Shown here: positions 1,802 through 21,374 of the stretch, one piece after another
Layout of the letters: each line of letters begins with the position of its first letter
Position numbering within the stretch: position 1 is the first letter of the stretch
Assembly: GCA_937921685.1 (NCBI GenBank)
Contig: CAKZUF010000003.1
Location: forward strand, 2,215-66,214
Origin: an uncultured archaeon
GTDB lineage: Archaea > Thermoproteota > Nitrososphaeria_A > Caldarchaeales > Calditenuaceae
Length of the DNA stretch: 64,000 nucleotides
Direction of reading: 5' to 3'
Notes under the pieces: model-generated
What the model was told of the DNA's origin: nothing
The model's input: only the letters and a program-made list of their open reading frames with translations
The model's database searches: none
Program-made: the position numbers and the translations under genes

Positions 1802-3574
1802 TCACGCAGGCACTTCTGCCTTTAACCCCTCAATCTCCGATCTTATCTCGGCCTCCAGCTCGTCGAACTTCTCAAGCTCCTCGTTCCTTATCATGTATTT
1901 AGCCCTCAGCATCTTTGTAATTACCTTGAGTGCTCTTATGTCTTCGATCTTCACCCCCCTGCCTATGGCTGCGAGTGCTTGCTCATAGAAGTTGACAAAC
2001 ATCTTGAGCATCTTAAACTGTTTCTGCGGGTTACAGTAGGAGTCTACTTCATCGTAGGCGCTCTGCTGCAGGAATCCTTCCCTGATCATCCTCGCAACGT
2101 CAAGGATTAGGTTCTCTTCATCCGCGAGTGCTTCAGGGCCCAGTAGCCTCACAAGCTCTAGCAGCTCCTCCTCTCTCCTCAGGATGCTGTATAGCTTGGC
2201 CCTTGTGTCATACCAGTCTCCGCCTATCTTGCTCCACCACTCCGCAACTGTGTCAACGTATGCAGAGTAGCTCATTATCCAGTTTATGGCCGGATAGTGC
2301 CTAGTATATGCTAGGTTGGGGTCGAGCGCCCAAAAGACCCTAACAAACCTGAGCGTATGTGTAGTGACTGGCTCTGTAAAGTCTCCGCCAGGCGGTGAGA
2401 CAGCCCCAACGATGGTGAGGCTTCCAACCCTACTCGGCTCTCCGAGGACCTCAACCCGCCCAGCCCGCTCATAGAACTCCGCAAGCCTACTTGCAAGATA
2501 GCTGGGATACCCCTCCTCGGCAGGCATCTCCTCTAACCGCCCGCTAATCTCCCTCAGAGCCTCGGCCCACCTACTCGTCGAGTCGGCCACAAGCAAAACA
2601 TCATACCCCATGTCCCTATAATACTCTGCTAAGGCTGCACCGGTGTAGATGCTGGCCTCCCTAGCCGAGACGGGCATATTACTAGTGTTAGCTATCAGTA
2701 CAGTCCTCTCCATGAGTGGTCTGCCGGTATGAGGGTCTGTCAAGTGTGGAAACTCCTTGAGGACCTCAGCCTCCTCATTCCCCCGCTCACCGCACCCTAT
2801 GTGGAGTATAACCTTTGCATCACTCCACTTAGCCAGCTGGTGCAGCGTGACAGTTTTCCCAGTTCCAAAGGCTCCAGGTATACAGCCAGTCCCACCCTTA
2901 GCCATTGGGAAGAGAATATCTAGGACGCGCTGACCAGTTACTAGAGGGACGACAGGGTCAAGCCTCCTCTTTATTGGGCGGGGTGTCCTCACGGGCCACC
3001 TATGCATCATTGAAACAGATATTTTGCCGTCCTTGCCCTCCATCTCGGCTACAGTCTCCTGAACCGTATACTCTCCCTCCGGCGCCACGTACCTTATTGT
3101 GCCCGGCTTAACGTCCGGCGGAATCATAACGTACGTCTTGATTAGGGGTGTCTCCTCAACCTCACCTATCACGGTTCCAGGCTCCGCCTGAGCCCCTGCT
3201 TTGATTAGTGGCTTAAACCGCCACTTCTTATCTAGCGGAATGCTCGGGACCGCTACACCCCTCTTTACAAAGGCTCCGACCTCTAGAGCTATCCTGTCAA
3301 GCGGCCTCTGAACACCATCGTAGATGCTACCTATTACGCCTGGGCCGAGGGTGACGGAGAGTGGGCCGCCCGTGCCTATTACTGGTTCCTCAGGCGCTAG
3401 TCCCGAAGTATTCTCATACACCTGCACATAGGCATTGTCCCCGCTGAGTCTGATGACCTCGCCGACAAGTTTTTCCTCACCAACATAAACCATCTCATAC
3501 ATCTTAGCGCCCGTCATTCCTCCAGCCTTAACCGTCGGACCGGCTATCCAGAGTATCTTCCCCCGAACAGGCAT
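1802..3574 (-). CDS. atpA: A1AO (V-type) ATP synthase catalytic subunit A
   Basis: 590 aa. Walker A GAFGTGKT. Shows the conserved V/A-ATPase A-subunit signature regions and is the length expected for the A subunit with its non-homologous insert. Confidence 0.9.
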
Positions 3575-9829: not shown

Positions 9830-10396
9830 CTACCCCTTAATCTCCTCAAATGTTATTTGCCTTAACCTCTTACCCTCTAAGATGACTATTGAAGAGCGGA
9901 TGGATAAGCCATGCTCCCGAGCAGCTCTCGAGGGCCCATCTTCACCTAACTTGTAGCCATAGCTGATCAAGGCGTCATAAGCCCTGCGCTTAAAGCCGCG
10001 AAGGTAGGGGCCTATGACTTTTAACAGTATCACTGCCCTCAACCCCAAGATGTAAACTACTATTCGCGAGCCCCTTCTCGACACCCATGCATCACCCGCC
10101 TGTCTGACAACAAAAGAGGCTGTATCCTCGTCGCAGCGCAACATGATGAATGGTGTGAAGATAATCGGGCTTTCAGAGACCTGTAAGTATCCTAGCCCAC
10201 CTGAGGCTTGGAGTAGCCCCGCTATGAAGCTGCTCACCACAGGGCTGAGAAGCTGTCTACTCGGCGGTCTCTTCTCGAGCTCGGAGAGAACAGCTGGAAA
10301 ATCGTCAACAATCCAGTATGCTCCCGGCTCGCAAAACACACGCCACCAAGGCGGGACAAGGCCCGACAATAGACCTCGGCCACAGATTCGACTCAA
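9830..10396 (-). CDS. Hypothetical protein, terminal gene of the sugar ABC operon
   Basis: 188-aa ORF beginning 6 nt after the stop of the ABC ATPase gene at 10402. No recognisable motif. Confidence 0.35.
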   Translation of the reverse strand: MSRICGRGLLSGLVPPWWRVFCEPGAYWIVDDFPAVLSELEKRPPSRQLLSPVVSSFIAGLLQASGGLGYLQVSESPIIFTPFIMLRCDEDTASFVVRQAGDAWVSRRGSRIVVYILGLRAVILLKVIGPYLRGFKRRAYDALISYGYKLGEDGPSRAAREHGLSIRSSIVILEGKRLRQITFEEIKG

Positions 10397-10401
10397 ACAT
10401 C

Positions 10402-11502
10402 TTAAATAATTACCTTCTCCGTCTCAGCGTCTATTAAGTGGATGTGTTCCTTATTGAAAGAAGCATATACCCGCATCCCCTCTCTGATATTTAGGGCCGC
10501 GTCGCAGAGACATTTAAAAGATGTAGATCCACTCCTTAGCTCTACAAGAAGCTCAGTGCCGAGCGACTCTATGTAATTTACGTGGCATGGGATCGAGTCG
10601 CCGACTGGAGTAGTCGAGATGCTGATGTCATGTGGCCTCACACCTAGCTGTATATTTTCTAGTTTGTCCTGCCGTGACTGTAGTGCGAGTTTAGCAGCCT
10701 CTCCCAACTCTATATGTGAGTCACCGACCAAGGCGTAGAGCTTACCCTCAATCAGCTTCAGCTTCGTATCGATGAAGTTGATAGTGGGCGAACCTATGAA
10801 ATAGGCGACAAACTTGTTTGCGGGGTGGTAGTAAATCTCGTCAGGCGTTCCTACCTGCTGGAGCCGCCCATCTCGAAGTATGCCTATTTTATCAGCTATC
10901 GCCATGGCTTCCAACTGGTCGTGAGTGACGTAGATGAAGGTGCCTCCGACCTCCCTGTGTATACGCTGGAACTCTGACCTAAGCGACTCTCTCAGTTTCG
11001 TGTCGAGGTTGCTGAGTGGTTCGTCAAATATGTATACCCGCGCATTTCTCACTATAGCTTTAGCTATGGATACGCGCTGTAGTATCCCAAAGTCAATCTC
11101 ATGATGCCTCTTATTCAGATGTTCCTCTATGCGGAGGAGCGAGGCAGCCCACTTAACTCTTTCACGCTCCTCCTGCCTGCTCTTAACCTCACTTCTGATG
11201 GCTAGTGCGATGTTGTCGTATACGTTTAGGCTTGGATATATTGAGGGGAACTGGAAAACCATTGCTATATTCCTCTCAGACGGTGATAAATCGGTGACGT
11301 CTTCGTCATCAAAGAATACCGAGCCTCTCGTAGGGGTCTCCAGACCCGCTATTATCCTCATCAAAGTGGTCTTACCTGACCCGCTAGGTCCCAGAAGACA
11401 GAAGAATAACCCGTGATCAACCGTTACCGTGACATCGTCCAGCGCCTTCAAGGTCTTGAAAATCTTTGTTATATTTTCAGCCCGTACGGTTACCATACCC
11501 AC
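10402..11502 (-). CDS. ABC transporter ATP-binding protein, MalK-like with C-terminal regulatory (TOBE-like) domain. Signature motif is degenerate.
   Basis: Walker A GPSGSGKTT, Q-loop FQ, Walker B IFDEPLSNLD and H-loop YVTHDQ are all present. The ABC signature LSGGQ is replaced by IDFGILQRV. Confidence 0.85.
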   Translation of the reverse strand: MGMVTVRAENITKIFKTLKALDDVTVTVDHGLFFCLLGPSGSGKTTLMRIIAGLETPTRGSVFFDDEDVTDLSPSERNIAMVFQFPSIYPSLNVYDNIALAIRSEVKSRQEERERVKWAASLLRIEEHLNKRHHEIDFGILQRVSIAKAIVRNARVYIFDEPLSNLDTKLRESLRSEFQRIHREVGGTFIYVTHDQLEAMAIADKIGILRDGRLQQVGTPDEIYYHPANKFVAYFIGSPTINFIDTKLKLIEGKLYALVGDSHIELGEAAKLALQSRQDKLENIQLGVRPHDISISTTPVGDSIPCHVNYIESLGTELLVELRSGSTSFKCLCDAALNIREGMRVYASFNKEHIHLIDAETEKVII

Positions 11503-11775
11503 CTACACCACCAAGATGGGGACAAGATAGATTGAAAGTATAACAAAGAATACGACAACACCTACGAGCGTCACGAGCCACCTCACCATTGTTCTAAGAC
11601 CCACATCACCTCCGGGATTACTTGGCAAGTACGTCGAATAGACGTATATGAAACCTCCAATGCCTATCAGGATAAAGCCGTAGTATAGTAGCTGGCTACT
11701 AAAGGGCTGGAATACGAGTCCAAGACCAATGAAGGACAAAGCAAGCCCGACCCTTTCTAGTAGATTCTTCTTCAT
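11503..11775 (-). CDS. Small integral membrane protein (about 3 TM) between the two ABC ATPase genes
   Basis: 90 aa, hydrophobic (GLALSFIGLGLVF...ILIGIGGFIYVY...LVTLVGVVVFFVILSIYLVPILVV). Exact end-to-end abutment with flanking genes. Confidence 0.45.
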   Translation of the reverse strand: MKKNLLERVGLALSFIGLGLVFQPFSSQLLYYGFILIGIGGFIYVYSTYLPSNPGGDVGLRTMVRWLVTLVGVVVFFVILSIYLVPILVV

Positions 11776-12864
11776 CTAATACATCGCCTCCCCACTTGAC
11801 ACGTCAAAAAGAATGACCCTATCACCAGGTATATTTATTATCACTTCGTCACCATATTTATATGACCTCATGCCCTTAGTTACAGCTTTTAATTCAACAT
11901 CGCCGAGACTCAGAGTAACTATTGTCTCATAACCCAGCCTCTCTGCAGCCACAACCTTTGCCTTGAAGGTATTACGGTTCTTAGGCCCTTCCAAGACTAT
12001 ATCTCGAGGTCTGACTGCAAGCTCCACTTCAGAGCCGTCCAAGAGTTTAGAGTAATGACCGACATCACTCAGCTGGATTCTCAGACTAGACGTTGAGAAC
12101 TCCCAACCATAAGCCATCCGCCTAACGACCCCCCGCATAATGTTTATAGTGGGGCTGCCTATGAAAGTGGCTACAAATCGGTTTTTCGGCCTTCTCAGCA
12201 AATTTATGGGGGTATCATACTGCAATATCACGCCGTCCTTTATCACCGCGACCTTCTCAGCAATTGCAAATGCCTCTAAAAAGTCAGGGGTAGCATAGAT
12301 GATCGTCTGTTTTAACTCCTTGTGCAGCCTTTTGAACTCTGTCCTCATCTCTTCCCTAAGCTTAGCGTCTAGGTTCGAGATGGGCTCGTCGAGAAGAAAG
12401 ATTCTCGGATTCCTAACTAGTGTACGTGCGAGCGCTACACGTTGCATCTCGCCCCCGCTGAGTGTAGATGGGTCTTTTCTGTCTAAGAGATGCGCTATCC
12501 TTAGCTTCTCAGCCACGTTTTTCACCGACCTGTCAATTTCTTGCCTGCTCCATTTACGCTCCCTCAACGGGTAGGCGATATTATCGTAGACACTCATGTG
12601 AGGATAGAGTGCATAGGTTTGGAAGAACATAGCTACATCTCGTCTCCAAGCTGGAGTTCCCAACACACTCTGTCCGTCGAAGAGTATATCACCTGCGTCG
12701 GGCTCTTCAACACCGGCGATGCATTTAAGGAGGGTAGTCTTTCCAGCACCTGTCGGTCCTAAGAGCGCTACGAGGGCGCCGGACTCAACCTCCAAGTTAA
12801 TTCCCCTCAGTGCCTGAACAGGCCCAAAAGACTTCTTTAAGCCACGTATCTCTACCCTTGTCAA
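11776..12864 (-). CDS. ABC transporter ATP-binding protein, MalK-like. Signature is intact but the H-loop is degenerate.
   Basis: Walker A GPTGAGKTT, Q-loop FFQ, signature LSGGEMQRVALAR and Walker B IFLLDEPISNLD are present. The H-loop position reads IIYATPDF, with His replaced by Pro. Has a C-terminal TOBE-like domain. Confidence 0.85.
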   Translation of the reverse strand: MTRVEIRGLKKSFGPVQALRGINLEVESGALVALLGPTGAGKTTLLKCIAGVEEPDAGDILFDGQSVLGTPAWRRDVAMFFQTYALYPHMSVYDNIAYPLRERKWSRQEIDRSVKNVAEKLRIAHLLDRKDPSTLSGGEMQRVALARTLVRNPRIFLLDEPISNLDAKLREEMRTEFKRLHKELKQTIIYATPDFLEAFAIAEKVAVIKDGVILQYDTPINLLRRPKNRFVATFIGSPTINIMRGVVRRMAYGWEFSTSSLRIQLSDVGHYSKLLDGSEVELAVRPRDIVLEGPKNRNTFKAKVVAAERLGYETIVTLSLGDVELKAVTKGMRSYKYGDEVIINIPGDRVILFDVSSGEAMY

Positions 12865-13770
12865 CTACTTTACACCCCTCACCGTACCGAAGGTCATCCC
12901 CCTCAGTAAGAAGCGCTGCAGAAGGAAGATAAGAACGAGAGCTGGAAGAATGTAAAGCGTCTCTATAGCTGCGATAAGGCCCCAGTTTATACCAACCTCG
13001 CCCCTCGTACCCGCTATCATAACTGGCACCGTCCGAGTCGCCCTCTCCGTTAGCAACAAGGCGAAAAGGAATTCGTTCCAGACATTGATTATTAAGAAAC
13101 CGATCGTGGCTCCTAGACCAACCAACACCTGCGGAAGGGCGATCTTGTAAAATACTTTGACCGGGTTAGAGCCATCGACCAACGCGGCCTGCTCGATGTC
13201 TCGTGGAACCTCGTCGAAGAAGCTCTTCATCATCCAGACCGCGAATGGGAGGTTGAACATTGTGTAGAGCAGAATAAGTCCGATATATGTGTTGTAGAGG
13301 CCTAGGCTCCGGTAAAAGAAGTATATGGGAATAGCAACCACGATGGCCGGCAGCATCCTAGTGGAGAGTATGAAGAACATTAGAGTACTCGTTCCTGCAG
13401 GTTTGTATCTTGAGAAGCTGTACGCGGCCAGAACCCCTATCACTGTAGCTATGGCGATGCTTGAGAACGTCACTACGAAGCTATTGTAGAAGAAGATCTC
13501 AGCGCCCGTGGCCAACTCAAGCTCCTGCCCTGTTATTGCCTCGATCTCCGTCTGCCTCTTCAGGAAAATGTCGATAAAGTTTCTAAATGTTGGCTCCCAG
13601 ACGAATAGTGGAGGTGTACTGAAGGCCTGTGCCCTTGTCTTTAGCGAAGTTGCTACGAGCCAGTAAATAGGGAAGATGAAGAAGATAACCGCAATGATAG
13701 TCGAGAGGTATATGAGAGTTGTTTTAACAATCTTACGCCTTCCACGCCTGTTATTTCTTAGATTTGCCAT
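12865..13770 (-). CDS. ABC transporter permease (CUT1 family, MalG-like)
   Basis: 301 aa, polytopic. EAA-like loop region (IEQAALVDGSNPVKVFYKIALP). Confidence 0.8.
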   Translation of the reverse strand: MANLRNNRRGRRKIVKTTLIYLSTIIAVIFFIFPIYWLVATSLKTRAQAFSTPPLFVWEPTFRNFIDIFLKRQTEIEAITGQELELATGAEIFFYNSFVVTFSSIAIATVIGVLAAYSFSRYKPAGTSTLMFFILSTRMLPAIVVAIPIYFFYRSLGLYNTYIGLILLYTMFNLPFAVWMMKSFFDEVPRDIEQAALVDGSNPVKVFYKIALPQVLVGLGATIGFLIINVWNEFLFALLLTERATRTVPVMIAGTRGEVGINWGLIAAIETLYILPALVLIFLLQRFLLRGMTFGTVRGVK

Positions 13771-13772
13771 CT

Positions 13773-14651
13773 CTATTCCCTCCTCGCCAATCTGAGATAG
13801 ATGTTCGTCAAGAGCACTATGATGACTAGGAATATAAATGCTAGCGCAGCGGCCTCACCAGTCCTGAAAAACTGAAAGGCGATCCGGTAGATCTGGATTG
13901 ACAACACCTCAGTGGCAGTTCCAGGCCCACCCTCGGTTAGCGTGAAAATTGTGTCAAAGGTCCTAAAGGCGTCCATTGTCCTAAAGAGGAGGGCAAGTGC
14001 CACTAGTGGTCTGATTGTGGGCCAGATGACGTATCGGAATTTTGCTAACATTGATAATCTATCAATCTCGGATGACTCCAACATGTGTTTCGGAATAGCT
14101 TCGAGGCCTGCCAGTATGAAGAGCATCATGAATGGAGACCATTGCCAAACATCCATGAATACGATCGCAAACATTGGATATTGTGAAAGTATCTTGACCG
14201 GTTGTCCTGTTATCAGCTGTGCAATGTAGCTGTAGATTCCAAAAGTTGCGTCAAAGAGGTACCGGTGGAAGATGCCTACTGCCACGGGTGCGACGAGAAG
14301 GGGCGTCGTTACAAGAGTTATTGCCAGCCGCCTACCACGGAACTGGTTATAGAATAGATGCGCGAGCCCAAATCCAATTAGGAATTCAATACTCACTGCG
14401 TAGAAGACAAATTGCCCTGTTAAAACAAATCTCCGCCATACGTCCAGACTATTCAAGAGCCTGTAATAATTCTCGACTCCGATAAAGATCGGTGCCCCTC
14501 CGCGAATAACGTTGTATGAGTAGAAGCTGAGACCAAGTGCCCAGATGAGTGGGAAGATTACAAGGAACGTCACGAGCGCAACTGCAGGTAGTATGAGCAG
14601 GATGGGGAAAATCCTCACTAGCCGGCTGCCAGTAGTGGCTTGTGAAGTCAT
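13773..14651 (-). CDS. ABC transporter permease (CUT1 family, MalF-like)
   Basis: 292 aa, polytopic. EAA-like motif (ESSEIDRLSMLAKFRYVIWP). Confidence 0.8.
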   Translation of the reverse strand: MTSQATTGSRLVRIFPILLILPAVALVTFLVIFPLIWALGLSFYSYNVIRGGAPIFIGVENYYRLLNSLDVWRRFVLTGQFVFYAVSIEFLIGFGLAHLFYNQFRGRRLAITLVTTPLLVAPVAVGIFHRYLFDATFGIYSYIAQLITGQPVKILSQYPMFAIVFMDVWQWSPFMMLFILAGLEAIPKHMLESSEIDRLSMLAKFRYVIWPTIRPLVALALLFRTMDAFRTFDTIFTLTEGGPGTATEVLSIQIYRIAFQFFRTGEAAALAFIFLVIIVLLTNIYLRLARRE

Positions 14652-14696
14652 ACAAAAATCACTTTATTTATCGCGTATTTGAGTTTATTCTGGGTT

Positions 14697-16361
14697 TTAG
14701 CCGATAGGCAGGCCTTGCCTTACAAGCTGTGCCACATTCTTCGCAGGCTTCCCATATTTCTCAAATGCCGCGGGGTAGTTCTCCCTCTCAATTATCTCTT
14801 TGTGCCGCCGCGCCACGTTATCTAGTGCGGCTTGGGGGCTGATACTGCCCGCTAGTGCTGCGTGTATCTCTTCCTGTACAACCGTCAGCATCTCGAAGAA
14901 GAAGGGGACGTTCCAGAAGTCGACCTGGAATGGTATAGAGTCGGCGTAGGCGCGGTTGTATGGTGTGAGGTTCCTGAACCACTCAGTCTGGATGATGTCC
15001 CTGATACATACTCCTCCGCCTCCTTCAGCCCATTTACGCTGATTCTGGGGCTGGAACCAGAATTTTATGAAGGCGAGCGCCTCCTCAGCGTAGTCGCTAT
15101 AAGCGTTTATACACATTGGTTGCCCTCCGATTCCGCTATATCTTCTGAATATTCCATCGTCTCCTTTGTGCCCAGGCGGTGGCACAACTCTTATCACGTT
15201 GTATACTTTGGATGCCGCGGGGTCGAAGAGGCTTGGCAGGAAGCCGGCCCAGTTATAAATCATCGCCACTTTTCCAGCCTGCATAACAGCATTCGCCTCA
15301 TCAAACCATATCTCGAGGGCGTTCGGCGGGGCGTAGGGGACCAGCGAGACGTAAAACTCGAGAGCTTTCCGTGCCCTCGGGCTATTGATCCATCCCTCAA
15401 CTTCTCCCGTCTCGGGGTCCCACCAATACTCACCGTGGCTATATAGTATTGAGCCGAATGGGCAGGCTATGGCGTCGTAGGCTTTAGACATGTGTAGTGC
15501 TATTCCATAGAAGTCCTCCTCTAAGCGTTTACCGGCCAGCTCGTCACCAGCCTTCCTAGTGAAATACTTGGCTATGTCCCTTATCTGGTACCAGTCAAGC
15601 TGTGCCGGATACCAGTCCTCATAGTTTAGCGGGAGGTCATATCCGTATTTCGCCTTGAAGTTCTCCCTCTCAGTTGGGTGAGAGAACAGGTCATACCTGT
15701 AGACGAAGAGTAGCACGTCACCCTCATGTGCGAAGCCGACTATGTTGTTGGTGTTCCCTTGAGGATAGGTCATATAGAAGTAGACTAGAGAGGGGTCGAA
15801 CCGGTTAAGTAGCTGCTGGAGCTCCGGGTCCCTCGCGATGATATCGTTTAGCCTTCGTATGTGTCCGCCGACGTAGAACTGGCCGAGCCATTGGCTATCA
15901 GATATCAAAAGCGTAGGCTCTTTTGACTTGGCGGCCAGCACCGTTGAGAGCCTGTCGAAAATAGCTCCCCAAGGAATCAGGTCCATCTTTACCTCTACCG
16001 CTTTACCGATTGTGGCTTTAGACCAGGCCGGGAAGTCTTTAGCTATGAGGCCCGTTAGCCTTCCTGGAAGCCACTCCGGCGAGGCAAACGTGATAGATAG
16101 CTCCGGCTTTACCTCGCCCACTGGTGCGGTGGCGGTGACAGTCTCCGTTCTCGTCACGGTCTGTGTTACTGTTTGGACCCCGGCTCCAGGCTGCGTTACA
16201 GTCTGTGTCAGAGTTCTCGTGACCTCTCTGGCCGGCTGGGCGGAGGTTCCGGCGAGGTACCCCGCAATCCCCCCTACAACACCGGTTACAACCGCTGCTG
16301 TCGCGACCTTAGCACCTGTGCTTAGCGCAGCACGTCTCGAAATTTTTCCATCTCTGGACAT
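14697..16361 (-). CDS. ABC transporter substrate-binding protein (family 1, sugar-type) with N-terminal anchor and Thr-rich linker
   Basis: 554 aa. N-terminal RRAAL-type signal/TM followed by repetitive TQTVTQ...TVTRTETVTAT linker, then a periplasmic-binding fold. First gene of the ABC operon. Confidence 0.75.
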   Translation of the reverse strand: MSRDGKISRRAALSTGAKVATAAVVTGVVGGIAGYLAGTSAQPAREVTRTLTQTVTQPGAGVQTVTQTVTRTETVTATAPVGEVKPELSITFASPEWLPGRLTGLIAKDFPAWSKATIGKAVEVKMDLIPWGAIFDRLSTVLAAKSKEPTLLISDSQWLGQFYVGGHIRRLNDIIARDPELQQLLNRFDPSLVYFYMTYPQGNTNNIVGFAHEGDVLLFVYRYDLFSHPTERENFKAKYGYDLPLNYEDWYPAQLDWYQIRDIAKYFTRKAGDELAGKRLEEDFYGIALHMSKAYDAIACPFGSILYSHGEYWWDPETGEVEGWINSPRARKALEFYVSLVPYAPPNALEIWFDEANAVMQAGKVAMIYNWAGFLPSLFDPAASKVYNVIRVVPPPGHKGDDGIFRRYSGIGGQPMCINAYSDYAEEALAFIKFWFQPQNQRKWAEGGGGVCIRDIIQTEWFRNLTPYNRAYADSIPFQVDFWNVPFFFEMLTVVQEEIHAALAGSISPQAALDNVARRHKEIIERENYPAAFEKYGKPAKNVAQLVRQGLPIG

Positions 16362-16420
16362 GCACTATCTAATAAAATGTGCATGCATTTATACTTTAAC
16401 ATACCGTTGAACAAACTATA
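16362..16420 (-). promoter_or_regulatory. Putative promoter of the sugar ABC operon (TATA-like gtataaatg about 35 nt upstream of the ATG on the minus strand)
   Basis: AT-rich box in the 237-bp divergent intergenic region. Confidence 0.25.
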
Positions 16421-16598: not shown

Positions 16599-17507
16599 TT
16601 GAAGGTTGCGCTGGTGAATTTCACTTCGGGCGGAGTGAGTGGTAGTGGCAGGCACGTTGCCCTGCTTAGGAAGGGGCTGGTTGAGAATGGGGTTGGAGTC
16701 AATATTGTTGACTTTGCGAATACTTGGCACCTTGATTTCCCCATGCTCAGGGCTCCGAGTTTTACGCTAGGCGCTTTGGCCAAGACAGTTAACGTGGACA
16801 TCATTCACCTGCATAACCCGAAGCTGGCTGGCATTGCATTGAGTAGGCCCTCAAGATGTATAGTTACTGTCCATGGGGGGATGATTGAGTTTAGCCTCAA
16901 GTATGGCGCTCTTGGGAAGGCTTCGGCCCAAGTGATGCTTACACTGATGCGGGCCGCCGGAGCGGTGACGTCTGTCATGAAGTCGGAGGCTGAGAGAAAC
17001 GGCTGGGCCTGGATTCCAAACATGACGGACCTCGAGGCGATAAGAGAGATAGAGCCTGCAGACGAGTCTGTGATACTTTTTGTGGGTAGGAATGACCCTG
17101 TCAAGAATTACCCCCTCTTCAGGAGGGTGGTGAAGATGCTTGGGAGGAGATATAGGGCGTTCGGCGTCGAAGAGGTAGCCAGCTGGGAGAGGGTGATCTC
17201 CTACATGAAGTCTGCAGAGGCGCTGATGATAACCTCAATATGGGAGGGGATGCCTTCCGTCCTGCTCGAAGCCTGGGCGTCAGGCTGCCCCGTTATTGCA
17301 CCCAAGATACCGGCATTCACGCCTTTCAAAGAGGCACTGATCCTAGCCGACCACGACCCAGATTCATACGTTGAAGCCTATCAGCAGCTTGAGACGCTTC
17401 GGGACTCGGTCACCTCAAGAGGGCTAGAGCTGGTGAAGAGGTTTGACTATAGGGTAGTCACAAGGCAATATATCCGCCTTTATGAGATCGTTCTTACTCT
17501 GTCCTAA
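16599..17507 (+). CDS. Glycosyltransferase, GT-B fold (GT4-like), short form
   Basis: 302 aa. The C-terminal half has the GT4 donor-binding character (FVGRNDPVKN...SIWEGMPSVLLEAWASGCPVIA). Confidence 0.55.
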   Translation: MKVALVNFTSGGVSGSGRHVALLRKGLVENGVGVNIVDFANTWHLDFPMLRAPSFTLGALAKTVNVDIIHLHNPKLAGIALSRPSRCIVTVHGGMIEFSLKYGALGKASAQVMLTLMRAAGAVTSVMKSEAERNGWAWIPNMTDLEAIREIEPADESVILFVGRNDPVKNYPLFRRVVKMLGRRYRAFGVEEVASWERVISYMKSAEALMITSIWEGMPSVLLEAWASGCPVIAPKIPAFTPFKEALILADHDPDSYVEAYQQLETLRDSVTSRGLELVKRFDYRVVTRQYIRLYEIVLTLS

Positions 17508-18708
17508 GGGCTTTGACCGGGTCTATCTGCGCGGCCCTTCTAGCAGGATATAGTCCCGAGAGGGAGCCCACGAACACGGCGAACAGCAATGCCTCGAGTA
17601 GGAGTTGCGGCGTTATGACTGGGTTTATGGGGAGTGGTTGAAACTGGGGGCCGAATCTTAGGAAGCGTCCTGAAAAGCTTGCGAACCCGATTGATAGAAC
17701 CACTCCTATGCCTATGCCTATGATTCCGCCGATCAGCCCCGTAAGAACCGCCTCGAAGAGGAAAGTCATCAAGACGTCGCGCCTCGTCATCCCAATAGAC
17801 CTTAAAACGCCTATCTCTCTAGTCCTCTCCATAACCGCCATTATCATCGTGTTCATTATTCCGAGGCCAGCCACTAGTAGGCTCACGGAGGCTATCGCGC
17901 CGAGAAATATTGTGAAGGAGGCTATTATGCCTCGAACGGTCGACAATATAGAGCTGGGGCTTATAATGTTGACATTCCTACCATACATCGCTTCCAGCTC
18001 GGAGATGATGTACTCGACCAGCTCCACCTTCTCCGTGTTCACAAGTATTGCTTGATACGTTGTTACTCCGAGAAGCCTTCTGGCCGCGGGGAGAGGCATT
18101 ACGACTGCCGTGTCTGCGTCGAAGAAGATGGAGGCCCCGAACTTGTCATATATCGCCGTGACCGTATAACTGGTTGTCTTAACACCGCTCTGTGTCGGGA
18201 CCACAATGGTGAGTGGTTGTCCTATGTAGAGGCGGGAATAGGTCGATGCAGCTGGAGGGAACGCTACCTTGTAGCCCACACCTACCTGCGTGGCGCTAGT
18301 GGAGAGCGGTGTCTCTCCCTCTAGAATCTTGATGCCGGGAAATATTATTTGGAGATGTATAGGGTCTATGCCAATTATCCGGCCGCTCACGGTTGTGCCT
18401 CCGACTTGGAACTCGGCGGCCGTTGAGATGAAGGGCGTGACTACGGAAACGCCAGGTATTCTCATTATCTTTTGGACGTCAGCGTCTGTGAACTGGATAT
18501 TCGAGCCCTGGGCCGGGAATATTATTATGTTGTTTGCGCCGAGTGTCAGAAGTTGGTCTGTTACAACTATGTTTATGCCGTCGCCAAGAGATAGGAGAGC
18601 AATTATGAGGCCTGCACCCACCGCGATTCCAAGAATTGTGAGAACACTCCTACCCCGCCTCTCCCTAAGCGCACTGAGCGCGTATCTGACCGCGTCAACC
18701 AGCTTCAC
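17494..18708 (-). CDS. ABC transporter permease, FtsX/MacB family
   Basis: 404 aa. N-terminal TM, a large extracytoplasmic domain, then three C-terminal TM with the FtsX-like pattern (REIGVLRSIGMTRRDVLMTFLFEAVLTG). Confidence 0.75.
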   Translation of the reverse strand: MKLVDAVRYALSALRERRGRSVLTILGIAVGAGLIIALLSLGDGINIVVTDQLLTLGANNIIIFPAQGSNIQFTDADVQKIMRIPGVSVVTPFISTAAEFQVGGTTVSGRIIGIDPIHLQIIFPGIKILEGETPLSTSATQVGVGYKVAFPPAASTYSRLYIGQPLTIVVPTQSGVKTTSYTVTAIYDKFGASIFFDADTAVVMPLPAARRLLGVTTYQAILVNTEKVELVEYIISELEAMYGRNVNIISPSSILSTVRGIIASFTIFLGAIASVSLLVAGLGIMNTMIMAVMERTREIGVLRSIGMTRRDVLMTFLFEAVLTGLIGGIIGIGIGVVLSIGFASFSGRFLRFGPQFQPLPINPVITPQLLLEALLFAVFVGSLSGLYPARRAAQIDPVKALRTE

Positions 18709-20641
18709 TTCGCTTACGCCTCCGTATGTAGAGATATCCAGAAGTCAGCGCGGCTAAGGCCCCGACTGCCACTAGCGCTGACACGACCCATCCCGGCCAA
18801 CTCTCCTGTCTCGTTTCACTCACTGGTCTCGGGATCTCCACATCTACTTGGAACTTGGTGGAATAGTTTTTACGGAATACGTCCTTGTACTCTACTATGA
18901 TCTCACCTTTGAATCTTTGGTCTCCAGAGTTTAGTTTGAGGTTGAATGGAAGCGGGGCGTTTGGCTTTATCTCGCCTACGAAGACGCTTGACCTTGTCCC
19001 CGAGTTGCTGTTTAGGTGTATGGTGGAGAAGAGGGCGTCAGATATCCCCTCGTTTATGATGTTTCCCGAGATGTAGGGTTCTCCGCCTATAAAGATTACT
19101 CTAGTGTCATAGATGCGCAAGATGATATACCCCTGGATAACGAAGCCTACGGCCCTTTGCTCCGATGCCTGCTCACCCGTCTCGCTTATTACATATGTGG
19201 CGGAGACCTGTATTGATGTAGAGGTCCCCGCCAGCTCAGGCTCTGCGTAAAGCTCCAACTGGACTGTCTCGGCCTGCCCTGAGTGTAGAGACTCTATTAG
19301 CCAATTATTAGAGCCAATTATTGTGAGCCTCGGGTTCAGCGATTGAGCAGTAATGGATACGCGTCTAAGATCGCTCAGGTGTATATTCTTGACTGTGAGT
19401 TTGATGGTTTGGGTTCGTCCAGCGACCAGCTCCGGTTCCGCCTCTATGAGTAGGTTTGGTGCCTTCGGCGGTATATCACCCACGGAGACCGCTATCGACA
19501 CCATCCTTGAAATTCTGTTCCCCGCTGAGTCCTTGAATGAAATCTGGAGCGGTATCTGGTAGACGCCATTAGCCGCCATCTGTGCGGCGTAAATAACCGC
19601 CTCGATAACGCTCCTCTGGCCTGGATCGAGACGGTCTAGGCTCCAGTATGACGGGCCAAGGATTGAAATGGGGAGACCTGAATGCTCAGCGGATACTCGG
19701 ATATCTCTAACCGCGACAGAGCCAATGTTCTCCAGGACAATGGATAGCTGATGGCTTGCCCCCGGCTCCATTCTGACTGGCTCAGCGTAGACCCTGAGAT
19801 TCGCCTCGCCGACCGCTGGCCTCCTGACATAGAGACTCAGGACCGATGTGAGCTCCCTGTATAGTCCGACAGCGTTTCTATACCTCGCCGTCACTGTAAT
19901 GGGCATGAGCGAGTCGCCAGATGCCTGCGACGCGTAGACACCTATAACCCACTTCTCAGAACCCGCTGGTGGGAGGCTTTCAACGATCCATGGCTGCTTG
20001 TCTATTAGCAGTCCATAGGCAGGCTGGGGCGGAGGCTGGACGAAGACCTGAATATCAGTGGCCTTCACAGACCCTACGTTGGTTAGTAAGAGCTCTACCG
20101 AGCTGACTCTTCCCGGCTCAATATCAGTAGCGTTAAGGCTGAATCTGAGAACGGGCCTCCCCGGAATATTTATCTTGACAGGAATTGTCTGGACCCTTAA
20201 ATTTTCTCCCAACACCCTGTAGGTAAGCAACAAAAGCCCCTCATAGTCTACACCAACCTCGGCAGAGCTGTCTATATTCACTATGAATGTGAGCTCGAAT
20301 ACGCCTCCGGGCGGGATGACCCCTGGGAAGTGGGCCTCAACTTCGCTAGGATTGGAGACACTCTGGGACCTTAGTACGCTGGGGAGCCTGAGCCTCCCGA
20401 CAATCCCTGTTATGCGATCTTCATCAAAGTCACTTCCAAGAGCTACTGTCAGGCGCACACCGCTATCGCCGGGCGCAACCTCCTCTTTAACACCATTCTG
20501 GCCCCAGTATAACCCAAGATACCTGACACCATCTGGACTTGCTTGAATGACGGGTAATGGGGCTAAGAGCGCCACTAGGAGGAGTGAGACAAGTAGGAGG
20601 GGCCTAAGCACGGAGAACCACCTCCGACTCGACTCGACCAT
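18695..20641 (-). CDS. Large extracellular protein with signal peptide, repeated beta-sandwich (CARDB/DUF11-like) domains and C-terminal TM anchor. Partner of the MacB-type ABC transporter.
   Basis: 648 aa. N-terminal signal (LLVSLLLVALLAPLPVIQA). C-terminal TM plus basic tail (VVSALVAVGALAALTSGYLYIRRRKR). Overlaps both flanking ABC genes. Confidence 0.55.
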   Translation of the reverse strand: MVESSRRWFSVLRPLLLVSLLLVALLAPLPVIQASPDGVRYLGLYWGQNGVKEEVAPGDSGVRLTVALGSDFDEDRITGIVGRLRLPSVLRSQSVSNPSEVEAHFPGVIPPGGVFELTFIVNIDSSAEVGVDYEGLLLLTYRVLGENLRVQTIPVKINIPGRPVLRFSLNATDIEPGRVSSVELLLTNVGSVKATDIQVFVQPPPQPAYGLLIDKQPWIVESLPPAGSEKWVIGVYASQASGDSLMPITVTARYRNAVGLYRELTSVLSLYVRRPAVGEANLRVYAEPVRMEPGASHQLSIVLENIGSVAVRDIRVSAEHSGLPISILGPSYWSLDRLDPGQRSVIEAVIYAAQMAANGVYQIPLQISFKDSAGNRISRMVSIAVSVGDIPPKAPNLLIEAEPELVAGRTQTIKLTVKNIHLSDLRRVSITAQSLNPRLTIIGSNNWLIESLHSGQAETVQLELYAEPELAGTSTSIQVSATYVISETGEQASEQRAVGFVIQGYIILRIYDTRVIFIGGEPYISGNIINEGISDALFSTIHLNSNSGTRSSVFVGEIKPNAPLPFNLKLNSGDQRFKGEIIVEYKDVFRKNYSTKFQVDVEIPRPVSETRQESWPGWVVSALVAVGALAALTSGYLYIRRRKRSEAG

Positions 20642-21308
20642 CCCTCAGCCTGACGATCCTGTCACACTTCTCCGCGACTTCAGGGTTGTGTGTAACGATG
20701 ACGAGGGTGGTGCCGAGCGTCTTGTTGATATTCCTAAGAATATCCATTACTACGGCGGTGTTCTTGGTGTCTAGGTTTCCCGTGGGCTCGTCTGCCAATA
20801 ATATCTTTGGCCTACCGACAAGCCCACGCGCGATTGCGACTCGCTGCTGCTCACCCCCGCTTAGCTCGCTCGGCTTCTTATGTGCCACGTCCTCCAAACC
20901 CACCATCCTGAGAGCTTCCAGTGCAGCTGCCTGTCTGGCCTGAAGCGGCACACCCCTTACGGCTAGTGGGAGTGACACGTTTTCGAGGGAGGAGAGCCTG
21001 CCAATCAAGTTGTAGGATTGGAAAACGAACCCGATTAGTCTGTTCCTAATCTCGCTCAGCCTAGAGTCATCCAGCCCTGAGGTGTCTACGCCATATAGAA
21101 CGACGCGGCCCCTCGTAGGCCTGTCAAGCGTCCCCGTGACGTGGAGTAGTGTGGATTTCCCACTACCACTCGGACCCATGACAGAGACCATCTCACCGCT
21201 CTTCACCCTAAGCGTCACCCCTCGGAGGGCTGGGTATTCTGTCTTTCCCGTCTTGTAGATCTTCCAAACCTCTTCGAGAACTATAGCGTAGTTTCCGTCG
21301 GGCTCCAT
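20604..21308 (-). CDS. ABC transporter ATP-binding protein (MacB/LolD-like)
   Basis: 234 aa. Walker A GPSGSGKST, signature LSGGEQQRVAIARGL, Walker B LLADEPTGNLD, H-loop VTHN. Confidence 0.85.
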   Translation of the reverse strand: MEPDGNYAIVLEEVWKIYKTGKTEYPALRGVTLRVKSGEMVSVMGPSGSGKSTLLHVTGTLDRPTRGRVVLYGVDTSGLDDSRLSEIRNRLIGFVFQSYNLIGRLSSLENVSLPLAVRGVPLQARQAAALEALRMVGLEDVAHKKPSELSGGEQQRVAIARGLVGRPKILLADEPTGNLDTKNTAVVMDILRNINKTLGTTLVIVTHNPEVAEKCDRIVRLRDGRVESEVVLRA

Positions 21309-21374
21309 GCCACATGCTATGAATCCCCCGGTCCTATTAAATTTACCAGACGATAGGTACAGTGGCTGCGTGCG

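Follow-up and report, generated by a model that had tools for sequence, protein, structure and literature searches.

Importers of the CUT1 type are typically encoded by four genes and driven by a homodimer of nucleotide-binding domains (NBDs), and XacGHIJK of Haloferax is a characterized exception with two ATPases (PMC11519228). MalFGK2-MalE, UgpAEC, GlcSTUV and AlgM1M2SS all combine a family-1 solute-binding protein (SBP), two BPD_transp_1 permeases and MalK-type NBDs with TOBE/OB domains. Each of them has one NBD gene, a homodimer and two consensus ATP sites. Herein, a stretch of 64,000 nucleotides (the window) from contig CAKZUF010000003.1 of an uncultured Calditenuaceae archaeon (Caldarchaeales) was analyzed. 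An ATP-binding cassette (ABC) importer operon in this window has the same components, but it encodes two complementary MalK-like ATPases, termed NBD-A and NBD-B, and a small membrane protein of 90 aa, termed the QPF protein.

Pairs of one consensus and one degenerate ATP site are presented in reviews as a feature of exporters (PMC3971661, PMC7756269). In TM287/288, TmrAB, BmrCD, TAP1/2 and CFTR, as in the window, two non-identical NBDs are present, and substitutions in the catalytic motifs of one and in the signature of its partner meet on one composite site, which leaves one consensus site. However, these proteins are exporters with the type IV fold, or a channel; their NBDs are fused to the transmembrane domains and their Walker B Glu is usually changed. 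The window encodes a binding-protein-dependent importer of type I in which the MalK-like NBDs are free and the Walker B Glu is retained. Among importers, the sugar/nucleoside systems RbsA and NupO with fused NBDs have one of two ATP sites degenerate by sequence (PMC11466899). These CUT2-type proteins carry tandem NBDs in one polypeptide, belong to another fold class and have no MalK-type regulatory domain, and their degeneracy includes loss of the Walker A Lys. E. coli DppD and DppF have been compared with TM287/288, and the two Dpp ATPases were both treated as active (PMC12136057).

The closest archaeal system is the xylose/arabinose transporter XacGHIJK of Haloferax volcanii (Johnsen et al. 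2019, as summarized in PMC11519228), a CUT1 importer with the order SBP-permease-permease-NBD-NBD and two distinct MalK-like ATPases. Unlike the pair in the window, XacJ and XacK both carry LSGGQ and the H-loop His in the sequences examined here, and the QPF protein was not found in the Haloferax xac region. An earlier sequence-only reading of the window had taken a single MalK homodimer as the normal state of CUT1 importers and an asymmetric pair as unexpected in importers. The first statement is right as the typical case, with XacJ/XacK, both canonical, as a two-ATPase precedent. The second is qualified by the degenerate sites of RbsA/NupO, importers with fused NBDs in which such sites had already been noted. 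Neither an asymmetric MalK-type heterodimer nor the small protein was found described in the full-text literature covered, which mostly excludes subscription papers. The importer type with NBD-A, NBD-B and the QPF protein is apparently so far undescribed.

The operon consists of seven open reading frames (ORFs) that lie head to tail on the minus strand at 9830-16361, each as the sequence-only reading had listed it. ORFs, gaps and Pfam/NCBIfam matches agree with its call of a sugar-type operon with two MalK-like TOBE ATPases. All coordinates below are window positions on the minus strand, unless the locus of a relative is named. The first gene encodes the SBP (554 aa, 14697-16361; SBP_bac_1 E 4.9e-22, SBP_bac_8 E 8.7e-16), which is 83-97% identical across L001-L007, the Caldarchaeales loci described below. 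Among solved proteins, the trehalose/maltose-binding protein 1eu8 of T. litoralis comes closest to this SBP (E 1.6e-18). The SBP gene is followed by the MalF/UgpA/GlcT-like permease 1 (292 aa, 13773-14651; BPD_transp_1 E 3.6e-11, best NCBIfam match UgpA E 4.7e-25) and the MalG/GlcU-like permease 2 (301 aa, 12865-13770; BPD_transp_1 E 1.2e-17, GlcU E 9.9e-38, MalG E 2.5e-24). The proximal ATPase NBD-B (362 aa, 11776-12864; ABC_tran and TOBE_2) and the distal ATPase NBD-A (366 aa, 10402-11502; ABC_tran, TOBE_2 and OB_MalK) both end in a TOBE/OB domain, and the QPF protein (90 aa, 11503-11775) is encoded between them. A 188-aa ORF is the last gene. The gaps between successive genes, from the SBP to the 188-aa ORF, are 45, 2, 0, 0, 0 and 5 nt. 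Both ATPases are UgpC/MalK/GlcV-like by Pfam and NCBIfam (E 1e-80 to 1e-100). The family-1 SBP, the two MalF/MalG-type permeases and the MalK-type NBDs with TOBE/OB domain are those of a CUT1 importer; two NBD genes stand in place of the typical single gene and homodimer. The CUT1 sequence motif G[IV]RPE[DH] (PMC11519228) reads GVRPHD in NBD-A and AVRPRD in NBD-B, with the VRP-x-D core kept, the Glu changed in both and the Gly changed in one.

The motif positions of the two ATPases were fixed by phmmer alignment to the solved MalK-type NBDs 2d62, 2it1 and AlgS (4tqu). Both ATPases match solved MalK, AlgS and P. horikoshii proteins at E 1e-65 to 1e-85, and the alignments to MalK, AlgS and 2d62 are full-length. 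The segment EIDFGILQRV of NBD-A aligns with ELSGGQRQRV of the solved NBDs, and the segment IYATPDFLEA of NBD-B aligns with IYVTHDQVEA. These alignments place IDFGI of NBD-A (residues 136-140, 11083-11097; aligned to LSGGQ of 2d62 and 2it1) at the signature position. They place Pro193 of NBD-B, within YATPDF (residues 190-195, 12280-12297; aligned to YVTHDQ), at the position of the H-loop His. NBD-A is canonical elsewhere, with Walker A GPSGSGKTT (K44), Q-loop Q84, Walker B D160-E161 and H194. NBD-B retains Walker A GPTGAGKTT (K42), Q82, D159-E160 and the signature LSGGE (residues 135-139, 12448-12462; aligned to LSGGQ of AlgS and 2it1). The two proteins are 36% identical to each other. The altered signature of NBD-A among otherwise canonical motifs, and the replaced His of NBD-B beside a canonical signature, had both been claimed by the sequence-only reading. 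Both were borne out, and the two segments stand exactly at the signature and H-loop positions.

In the head-to-tail dimer of ABC proteins, one NBD supplies the catalytic motifs of an ATP site and its partner supplies the signature (PMC6906923). By this architecture, both defects fall on the site made of the NBD-B Walker A/B and the NBD-A signature, and the other site is consensus. The preferred reading, to which a probability of roughly 0.7 is assigned, is a CUT1-type sugar or polyol importer with an obligate A/B heterodimer, in which one site is catalytic and the other degenerate, and with the QPF protein most likely as an accessory. The motor would be a heterodimer of two anciently diverged MalK-like ATPases. 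At site 1, the Walker A, Q-loop, Walker B and H-loop of NBD-A would be completed by LSGGE of NBD-B, and ATP would be hydrolyzed here. Site 2 would be formed by the NBD-B Walker A/B, with Pro for the H-loop His, and IDFGI of NBD-A. It would retain the residues that bind Mg-ATP, but the signature Ser/Gly and the H-loop His would no longer be there to contact the gamma-phosphate; in MalK, H192 contacts the ATP gamma-phosphate (PMC6906923). Most likely, site 2 would hold ATP and aid dimer closure with little or no hydrolysis, which would give about one ATP per cycle. In an A2 homodimer both signatures would be bad, and in a B2 homodimer the H-loop His would be missing from both sites; a working site would be present only in the A/B pair. 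The QPF protein would most likely be a sixth, membrane-embedded accessory subunit or an assembly factor. Gene content, motif positions, conservation and co-occurrence are direct observations; we infer that the heterodimer forms, that its sites differ in catalysis, that the small protein binds physically to the complex, and which class of substrate is taken up.

The conservation of these features was analyzed by scanning 185,579 species genomes with NBD-A, and seven Caldarchaeales loci (L001-L007) were obtained. The nearest genomes are the Caldarchaeales metagenome-assembled genomes HR02 (Calditenuaceae) and Ca. Caldarchaeum subterraneum. The seven-gene order is the same in all seven loci; IDFGI and YVTHDQ are invariant in NBD-A, and LSGGE and YATPD[FY] are invariant in NBD-B. 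In the orthologous operons, both ATPases stay together with one SBP and one permease pair. A sister clade of hot-spring Nitrososphaerota (L082-L084) has ATPases 50-56% identical to those of the window, in the order SBP-permease-permease-B-small ORF-A, with LDMGx in A and YATPD[YH] in B. YATPD[FYH] of NBD-B is present in 10 of 10 archaeal orthologs. Among the relatives of NBD-A, ID[FL]GI is found in P0001-P0015 and LDMGx in P0016-P0032 (LDAGT in P0021, LDMSV in P0031). Since the substitutions are invariant in seven orthologous operons and persist in a clade of 50-56% identity, they are not due to chance. The ratio of nonsynonymous to synonymous substitution rates (dN/dS) against L004 is 0.02 for the SBP and for permease 2, 0.05 for NBD-B, 0.04 for NBD-A, 0.08 for the small ORF and 0.13 for the 188-aa ORF, all rough values because dS is saturated. 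By these estimates, purifying selection acts on every gene of the operon. Divergence is faster in the ATPases than in the SBP and permeases, with 66% versus 78-87% identity against L006 and 50-56% versus 67-76% against L082. In ABC systems it is usually the NBDs that are most conserved, and the opposite is seen here.

The wider family was examined in 80 genome loci fetched with NBD-A as the seed, a sample that is biased toward A and phylogenetically non-independent. A non-canonical signature is present in 48 of the 120 best database relatives of NBD-A. An A+B ATPase pair is present in 55 of the 80 loci, seven of which are the Caldarchaeales orthologs, and the taxa with A/B loci include Rhizobium, Mesorhizobium, Dongia, Inquilinus, Spirochaetota, Atribacteria, Thermoplasmatota and Bathyarchaeota. 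The A/B gene pair with one SBP and one permease pair is also found in L082-L086, L089 and L090, and the genes often overlap or abut. The layouts in Rhizobium and Mesorhizobium are B-SBP-permease-permease-A-small and SBP-permease-permease-A-B-small. Judged by these motifs and gene pairs, the asymmetric A/B type is not special to the window or to archaea and is widespread in bacteria.

The motif census covered 143 ATPases, namely those of the loci fetched with NBD-A, of L082/L083, and XacJ/XacK. In the A class (n = 69), the signature is degenerate in every protein (VSEGE, LPPGA, IDFGI, LPDGD, IHPAQ, LDASG and others), and Walker A, Q-loop, Walker B DE and H-loop are canonical in every protein. 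In the B class (n = 61), [LAC]SGGE, the Walker A Lys and the Walker B Asp-Glu are retained in all. The H-loop His is lost in 38 of the 61 B proteins (Pro in 35, Ser in 3) and the Q-loop shows Q to E in 23 of 61; two proteins have both defects and two have neither. A degenerate signature together with an H-loop or Q-loop defect was found in none of the ATPases analyzed, the 69 A and 61 B proteins among them. Because no protein has both defect types, the defects of every pair converge on one composite site. The motifs of the other, consensus site are invariant across all 130 A and B proteins. The one consensus and one degenerate site that the sequence-only reading had predicted for the window is thus a complementary pattern, at the level of predicted sites, throughout the 69 A and 61 B proteins, which come from 90 loci.

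A neighbor-joining tree calculated with the motif columns removed separated all 61 B proteins by one clean split. The A/B pair is read here as the product of an old duplication followed by progressive, lineage-specific decay of one site that was already dispensable, and the varied B defects (H to P, H to S, Q to E) would fit such continued decay of a redundant site. The pattern also holds in two more contexts that were seeded from other ATPases with a degenerate signature, a Bathyarchaeia-like one with LTPGE and a bacterial one with LTSGQ. Adjacent B and A genes are seen in a Thermoplasmatota/Bathyarchaeota/Terraquivivens clade (L027 2493-4673, L031 992-3171, L035 4832-7001), with YAASDP or LATSDP (His to Ser) in B and LDASG or LDLSA in A.

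The QPF protein between the two ATPase genes has three hydrophobic helices at about residues 9-22, 29-46 and 63-90. Its Gln-Pro-Phe (residues 23-25, codons at 11701-11709) is the source of the name, and Gln23-Pro24 sits between helices 1 and 2. From the charge distribution, we infer a cytoplasmic N-terminus and a Gln-Pro turn that faces outward. The protein has no Pfam or NCBIfam match, and a search with seven homologs at E <= 10 gave noise only. DUF2160, known as a small membrane protein of glycerol ABC operons, was not among the Pfam/NCBIfam matches of these seven homologs at that threshold, and a profile search of the PDB sequences gave nothing relevant. Within Caldarchaeales, the small protein is conserved.

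A hidden Markov model (HMM) was built from archaeal sequences alone and searched against 14,313 six-frame ORFs of the loci. Small ORFs in bacterial A/B loci were matched at E 4e-13 to 1.7, with 42 of the 55 bacterial matches below 0.01, and all matches of this HMM lie on the ATPase strand, directly after or between ATPase genes. After one iteration, the small protein was found in 67 of 73 A/B loci versus 0 of 9 loci with canonical ATPases only, and the iterated HMM gave no minus-strand match below E 0.01. Among the A/B loci without it, L019 and L022 lie on contigs that are cut short, and L051 may be a further such case. The conserved domain begins a median of 42 nt past the end of the preceding ATPase gene, and the small ORF abuts or overlaps an ATPase gene in the window, L020 and L060. 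In a 19-member alignment, Gln-Pro is invariant, a Gly nine residues further on is near-invariant, and the arrangement is TM1-[FG]QP[FY]-TM2 (TM, transmembrane helix). The third helix is present in Archaea, Atribacteria and many Alphaproteobacteria. By this gene association, the small protein is a conserved hallmark of the predicted A/B importer family.

The database search with the 19-member alignment returned at least 1,511 clusters of the small protein. Among the 120 clusters listed, nearly all of those with a name are called hypothetical protein, two are named cytochrome c biogenesis factor (JGI), and none has a Pfam domain. Of four contexts seeded from the small protein, two are intact ATPase-SBP-permease-permease-ATPase-small operons, one is a fragmented ABC operon, and one is an orphan. 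Both intact operons adjoin AP_endonuc_2 and GFO_IDH_MocA or SDR genes. The small protein is also contained in two contexts seeded from other degenerate-signature ATPases. In the bacterial locus L090, a QPF gene (3365-3526) lies in a 220-nt permease-ATPase gap that is intergenic in the source annotation, where the gene is uncalled. The family is probably under-annotated. Long stop-to-stop ORFs in some loci had suggested a fusion of the small protein to an ATPase. In L079, the only locus checked in this respect, the long ORF and the ATPase are in different reading frames, as expected of an artifact of high GC content rather than of a fusion.

Several observations weigh against the reading of an obligate, catalytically asymmetric heterodimer with an accessory protein. 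Site 2 may still be active to some extent, since the catalytic Glu and the Q-loop Gln are both present in NBD-B, and the H-loop His is not equally essential across all ABC proteins. In the LTPGE group (L089), the partner B is nearly canonical in its catalytic motifs, and the degree of asymmetry varies. The exact B split was recovered in 17 of 40 bootstraps, a moderate level of support for a single B origin. The association of the small protein with A/B loci gives Fisher p = 1.7e-8 with shared ancestry uncorrected. The small protein was not detected in the fetched DNA of the A/B clade L027, L031 and L035. One member, P0225 (L088 3304-3573, E 8.6e-20), is an orphan beside an ion channel and a glycosyltransferase on a 10-kb contig. 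No sugar-catabolic genes flank the operon within the window.

The alternative that survives best, unlikely as it is, is that the 90-aa ORF encodes no transporter subunit: the small membrane protein would be unrelated to the importer, or it would act as a regulator or chaperone whose gene is merely carried along in the operon. Its absence from the L027/L031/L035 clade and the L088 member encoded away from ABC genes would fit this explanation. It is opposed by the same-strand position kept across Bacteria and Archaea in the 67 A/B loci and by the absence of the gene from all 9 canonical loci, by the short spacing to the ATPase gene, and by the dN/dS of 0.08 with the invariant Gln-Pro. A further claim, rated somewhat below even odds, is that these importers form an ancient subfamily of type I MalK-type importers in Bacteria and Archaea with a single catalytic site, which would need the QPF protein as a sixth subunit of two to three helices that may couple or stabilize the motor.

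It is improbable that both sites of the heterodimer are competent, the variants being tolerated, perhaps as thermophile- or lineage-specific features, with two ATP used per cycle. The Walker A Lys, Q-loop Gln and Walker B Asp-Glu of NBD-B and the only mild deviations in the L089 group agree with two competent sites. However, IDFGI is without the Ser and the Gly-Gly of LSGGQ, the His at the NBD-B position is the one that contacts the ATP gamma-phosphate in MalK (H192, PMC6906923), and one site gathers lineage-varied defects while the other is invariant in 130 proteins, as expected from release from catalytic constraint. Very improbable is the explanation that the two ATPases are paralogs in separate homodimers, one on these permeases and the other elsewhere or shared as a multitask ATPase like MsiK/MsmK: shared MalK-like ATPases serving several CUT1 systems are known (PMC7658222) and each ATPase has a complete fold with regulatory domain, but A2 would carry two IDFGI and B2 no H-loop His at both sites, both genes are kept with one SBP and one permease pair in the 55 loci plus L082-L086, L089 and L090, and the defects are always complementary.

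The substrate of the preferred A/B importer was considered from the neighborhoods of relatives. AP_endonuc_2 (xylose-isomerase-like TIM barrel), GFO_IDH_MocA oxidoreductase and FGGY kinase genes repeatedly flank archaeal and bacterial relatives (L082 9163-16978; L083 8131-15440; L085 7346-10305; L086 1-1130; L089 1171-2133 and 8608-14245). In the sister clade L082-L084, AP_endonuc_2, GFO_IDH_MocA and FGGY genes follow the operon in place of the 188-aa gene. These flanking genes, which are not found beside the operon in the window, suggest inositol, polyol or (keto-)sugar substrates.

In Mesorhizobium (L060 10337-13120), genes for Dak1/Dak2 (dihydroxyacetone kinase) and for a DeoC/LacD aldolase come after the A/B transporter and its QPF gene. 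These neighbors may indicate a triose or tetrose polyol substrate, and the transporter may be of the MptABCDE type for polyols. GlpSTPQV has two ATP-binding proteins (PMC11223650) and MptABCDE is a five-gene transporter (PMC3599248). Both rhizobial polyol systems are CUT1-like and were defined genetically or transcriptionally; the likeness drawn here comes from the descriptions in these papers and is a lead. Degenerate motifs and a small subunit go unmentioned in both papers (PMC11223650, PMC3599248). In tblastn searches of the PLSDB plasmids with the small protein and the rhizobial A/B ATPases, no match or only generic UgpC-like matches below 45% identity were found.

The spread of the A/B type beyond one genome lowers the value of the window itself and raises that of the family. 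Whether one or two ATP are used per cycle in type I importers is listed as open in a MalFGK2 review (PMC6906923). This stoichiometry has so far been approached with engineered half-dead homodimers, and a natural MalK-type heterodimer with one degenerate site would be a direct test system; Caldarchaeales offer thermostable versions of it, and Rhizobium and Mesorhizobium offer versions that can be manipulated genetically. If one ATP is used per substrate, the uptake cost would be halved, which could matter for energy-limited thermophiles and oligotrophs. The consensus/degenerate design would also extend beyond exporters, where the reviews cited above (PMC3971661, PMC7756269) place such sites. 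If the small protein is a subunit, it would be a new accessory component of a well-studied transporter class and a new annotation family. A- and B-type ATPases could be flagged by genome annotation pipelines.

A TATA-like box AAAGTATAAAT at 16385-16400, read from the sequence about 30 nt upstream of the SBP ATG, is the putative operon promoter, and a convergent gene ends 10 nt past the last ORF. The gene packing, the TATA-like box and the convergent neighbor fit a single transcription unit. At the SBP N-terminus, a twin-arginine-like ISRRAAL and a hydrophobic anchor are followed by a Thr/Gln/Val-rich repeat linker (TQTVTQPGAGVQTVTQTVTRTETVT). By its sequence features, this arrangement is typical of membrane-anchored archaeal binding proteins.

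The sequence-only reading had proposed both the 90-aa protein and the terminal 188-aa protein (9830-10396) as additional subunits or regulators. Synteny supports this for the former; the latter has a predicted LAGLIDADG fold and is no part of the transporter. The 188-aa protein has no Pfam or NCBIfam match and only 11 relatives in 1.84 billion representative proteins. Its family profile gave 14 PDB matches at E <= 10, all of them LAGLIDADG homing endonucleases, among them I-HjeMI (1.6e-4) and I-MsoI (1.9e-4). The AlphaFold2 model from a 9-sequence alignment has a confidence score (pLDDT) of 90.9, versus 40 from the single sequence. In a Foldseek search with this model, 45 of 50 matches listed bear the name of a LAGLIDADG homing endonuclease or of a meganuclease engineered from one (probability 0.99-1.00); I-CreI, I-CvuI and I-MsoI are the top matches (probability 1.00), and I-CeuI is also listed. 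In the model, the fold is the alpha-beta-beta-alpha-beta-beta-alpha fold of LAGLIDADG proteins.

Compared with I-CreI-type endonucleases, the fold is common, with a target-normalized TM score of about 0.5 over about 108 aligned residues, and the motif stands at the end of the first long helix in both. The motif reads IAGLLQASG (residues 58-66, 10199-10225) with Ser65 in place of the catalytic acid. N, G or C occupies this position in close homologs, and D/E is found only in the distant P0251, P0252, P0253 and P0255. Unlike the I-CreI type, the 188-aa protein has no catalytic Asp/Glu, and its gene is free-standing at the operon end rather than in an intron or intein. The gene is kept at this place in L001-L007, stands at the operon end in 8 Caldarchaeales genomes in all, is absent from L082-L084, and has dN/dS of 0.13-0.30. 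From the model and these comparisons, we conclude that the 188-aa protein is a nuclease-dead LAGLIDADG-fold protein, specific to Caldarchaeales and not part of the predicted transporter family; it is possibly a DNA-binding factor. A 34%-identical homolog, P0249, also without the acid, overlaps the end of a MarR/TrmB-type winged helix-turn-helix regulator gene (L092 4258-5203), in a region that holds GatZ/KbaZ, FGGY kinase and SDR sugar genes. This hints at a nuclease-dead LAGLIDADG family tied to sugar-utilization loci, perhaps as a DNA-binding factor.

A separate gene set lies immediately upstream of the operon on the same strand, at 17494-21374. It encodes an ABC ATPase (20607-21374), a secreted protein of 648 aa that carries CARDB/NEW3-like repeats and is anchored at its C-terminus (18695-20641), and a MacB/FtsX-type permease (17494-18708), and its successive genes overlap.

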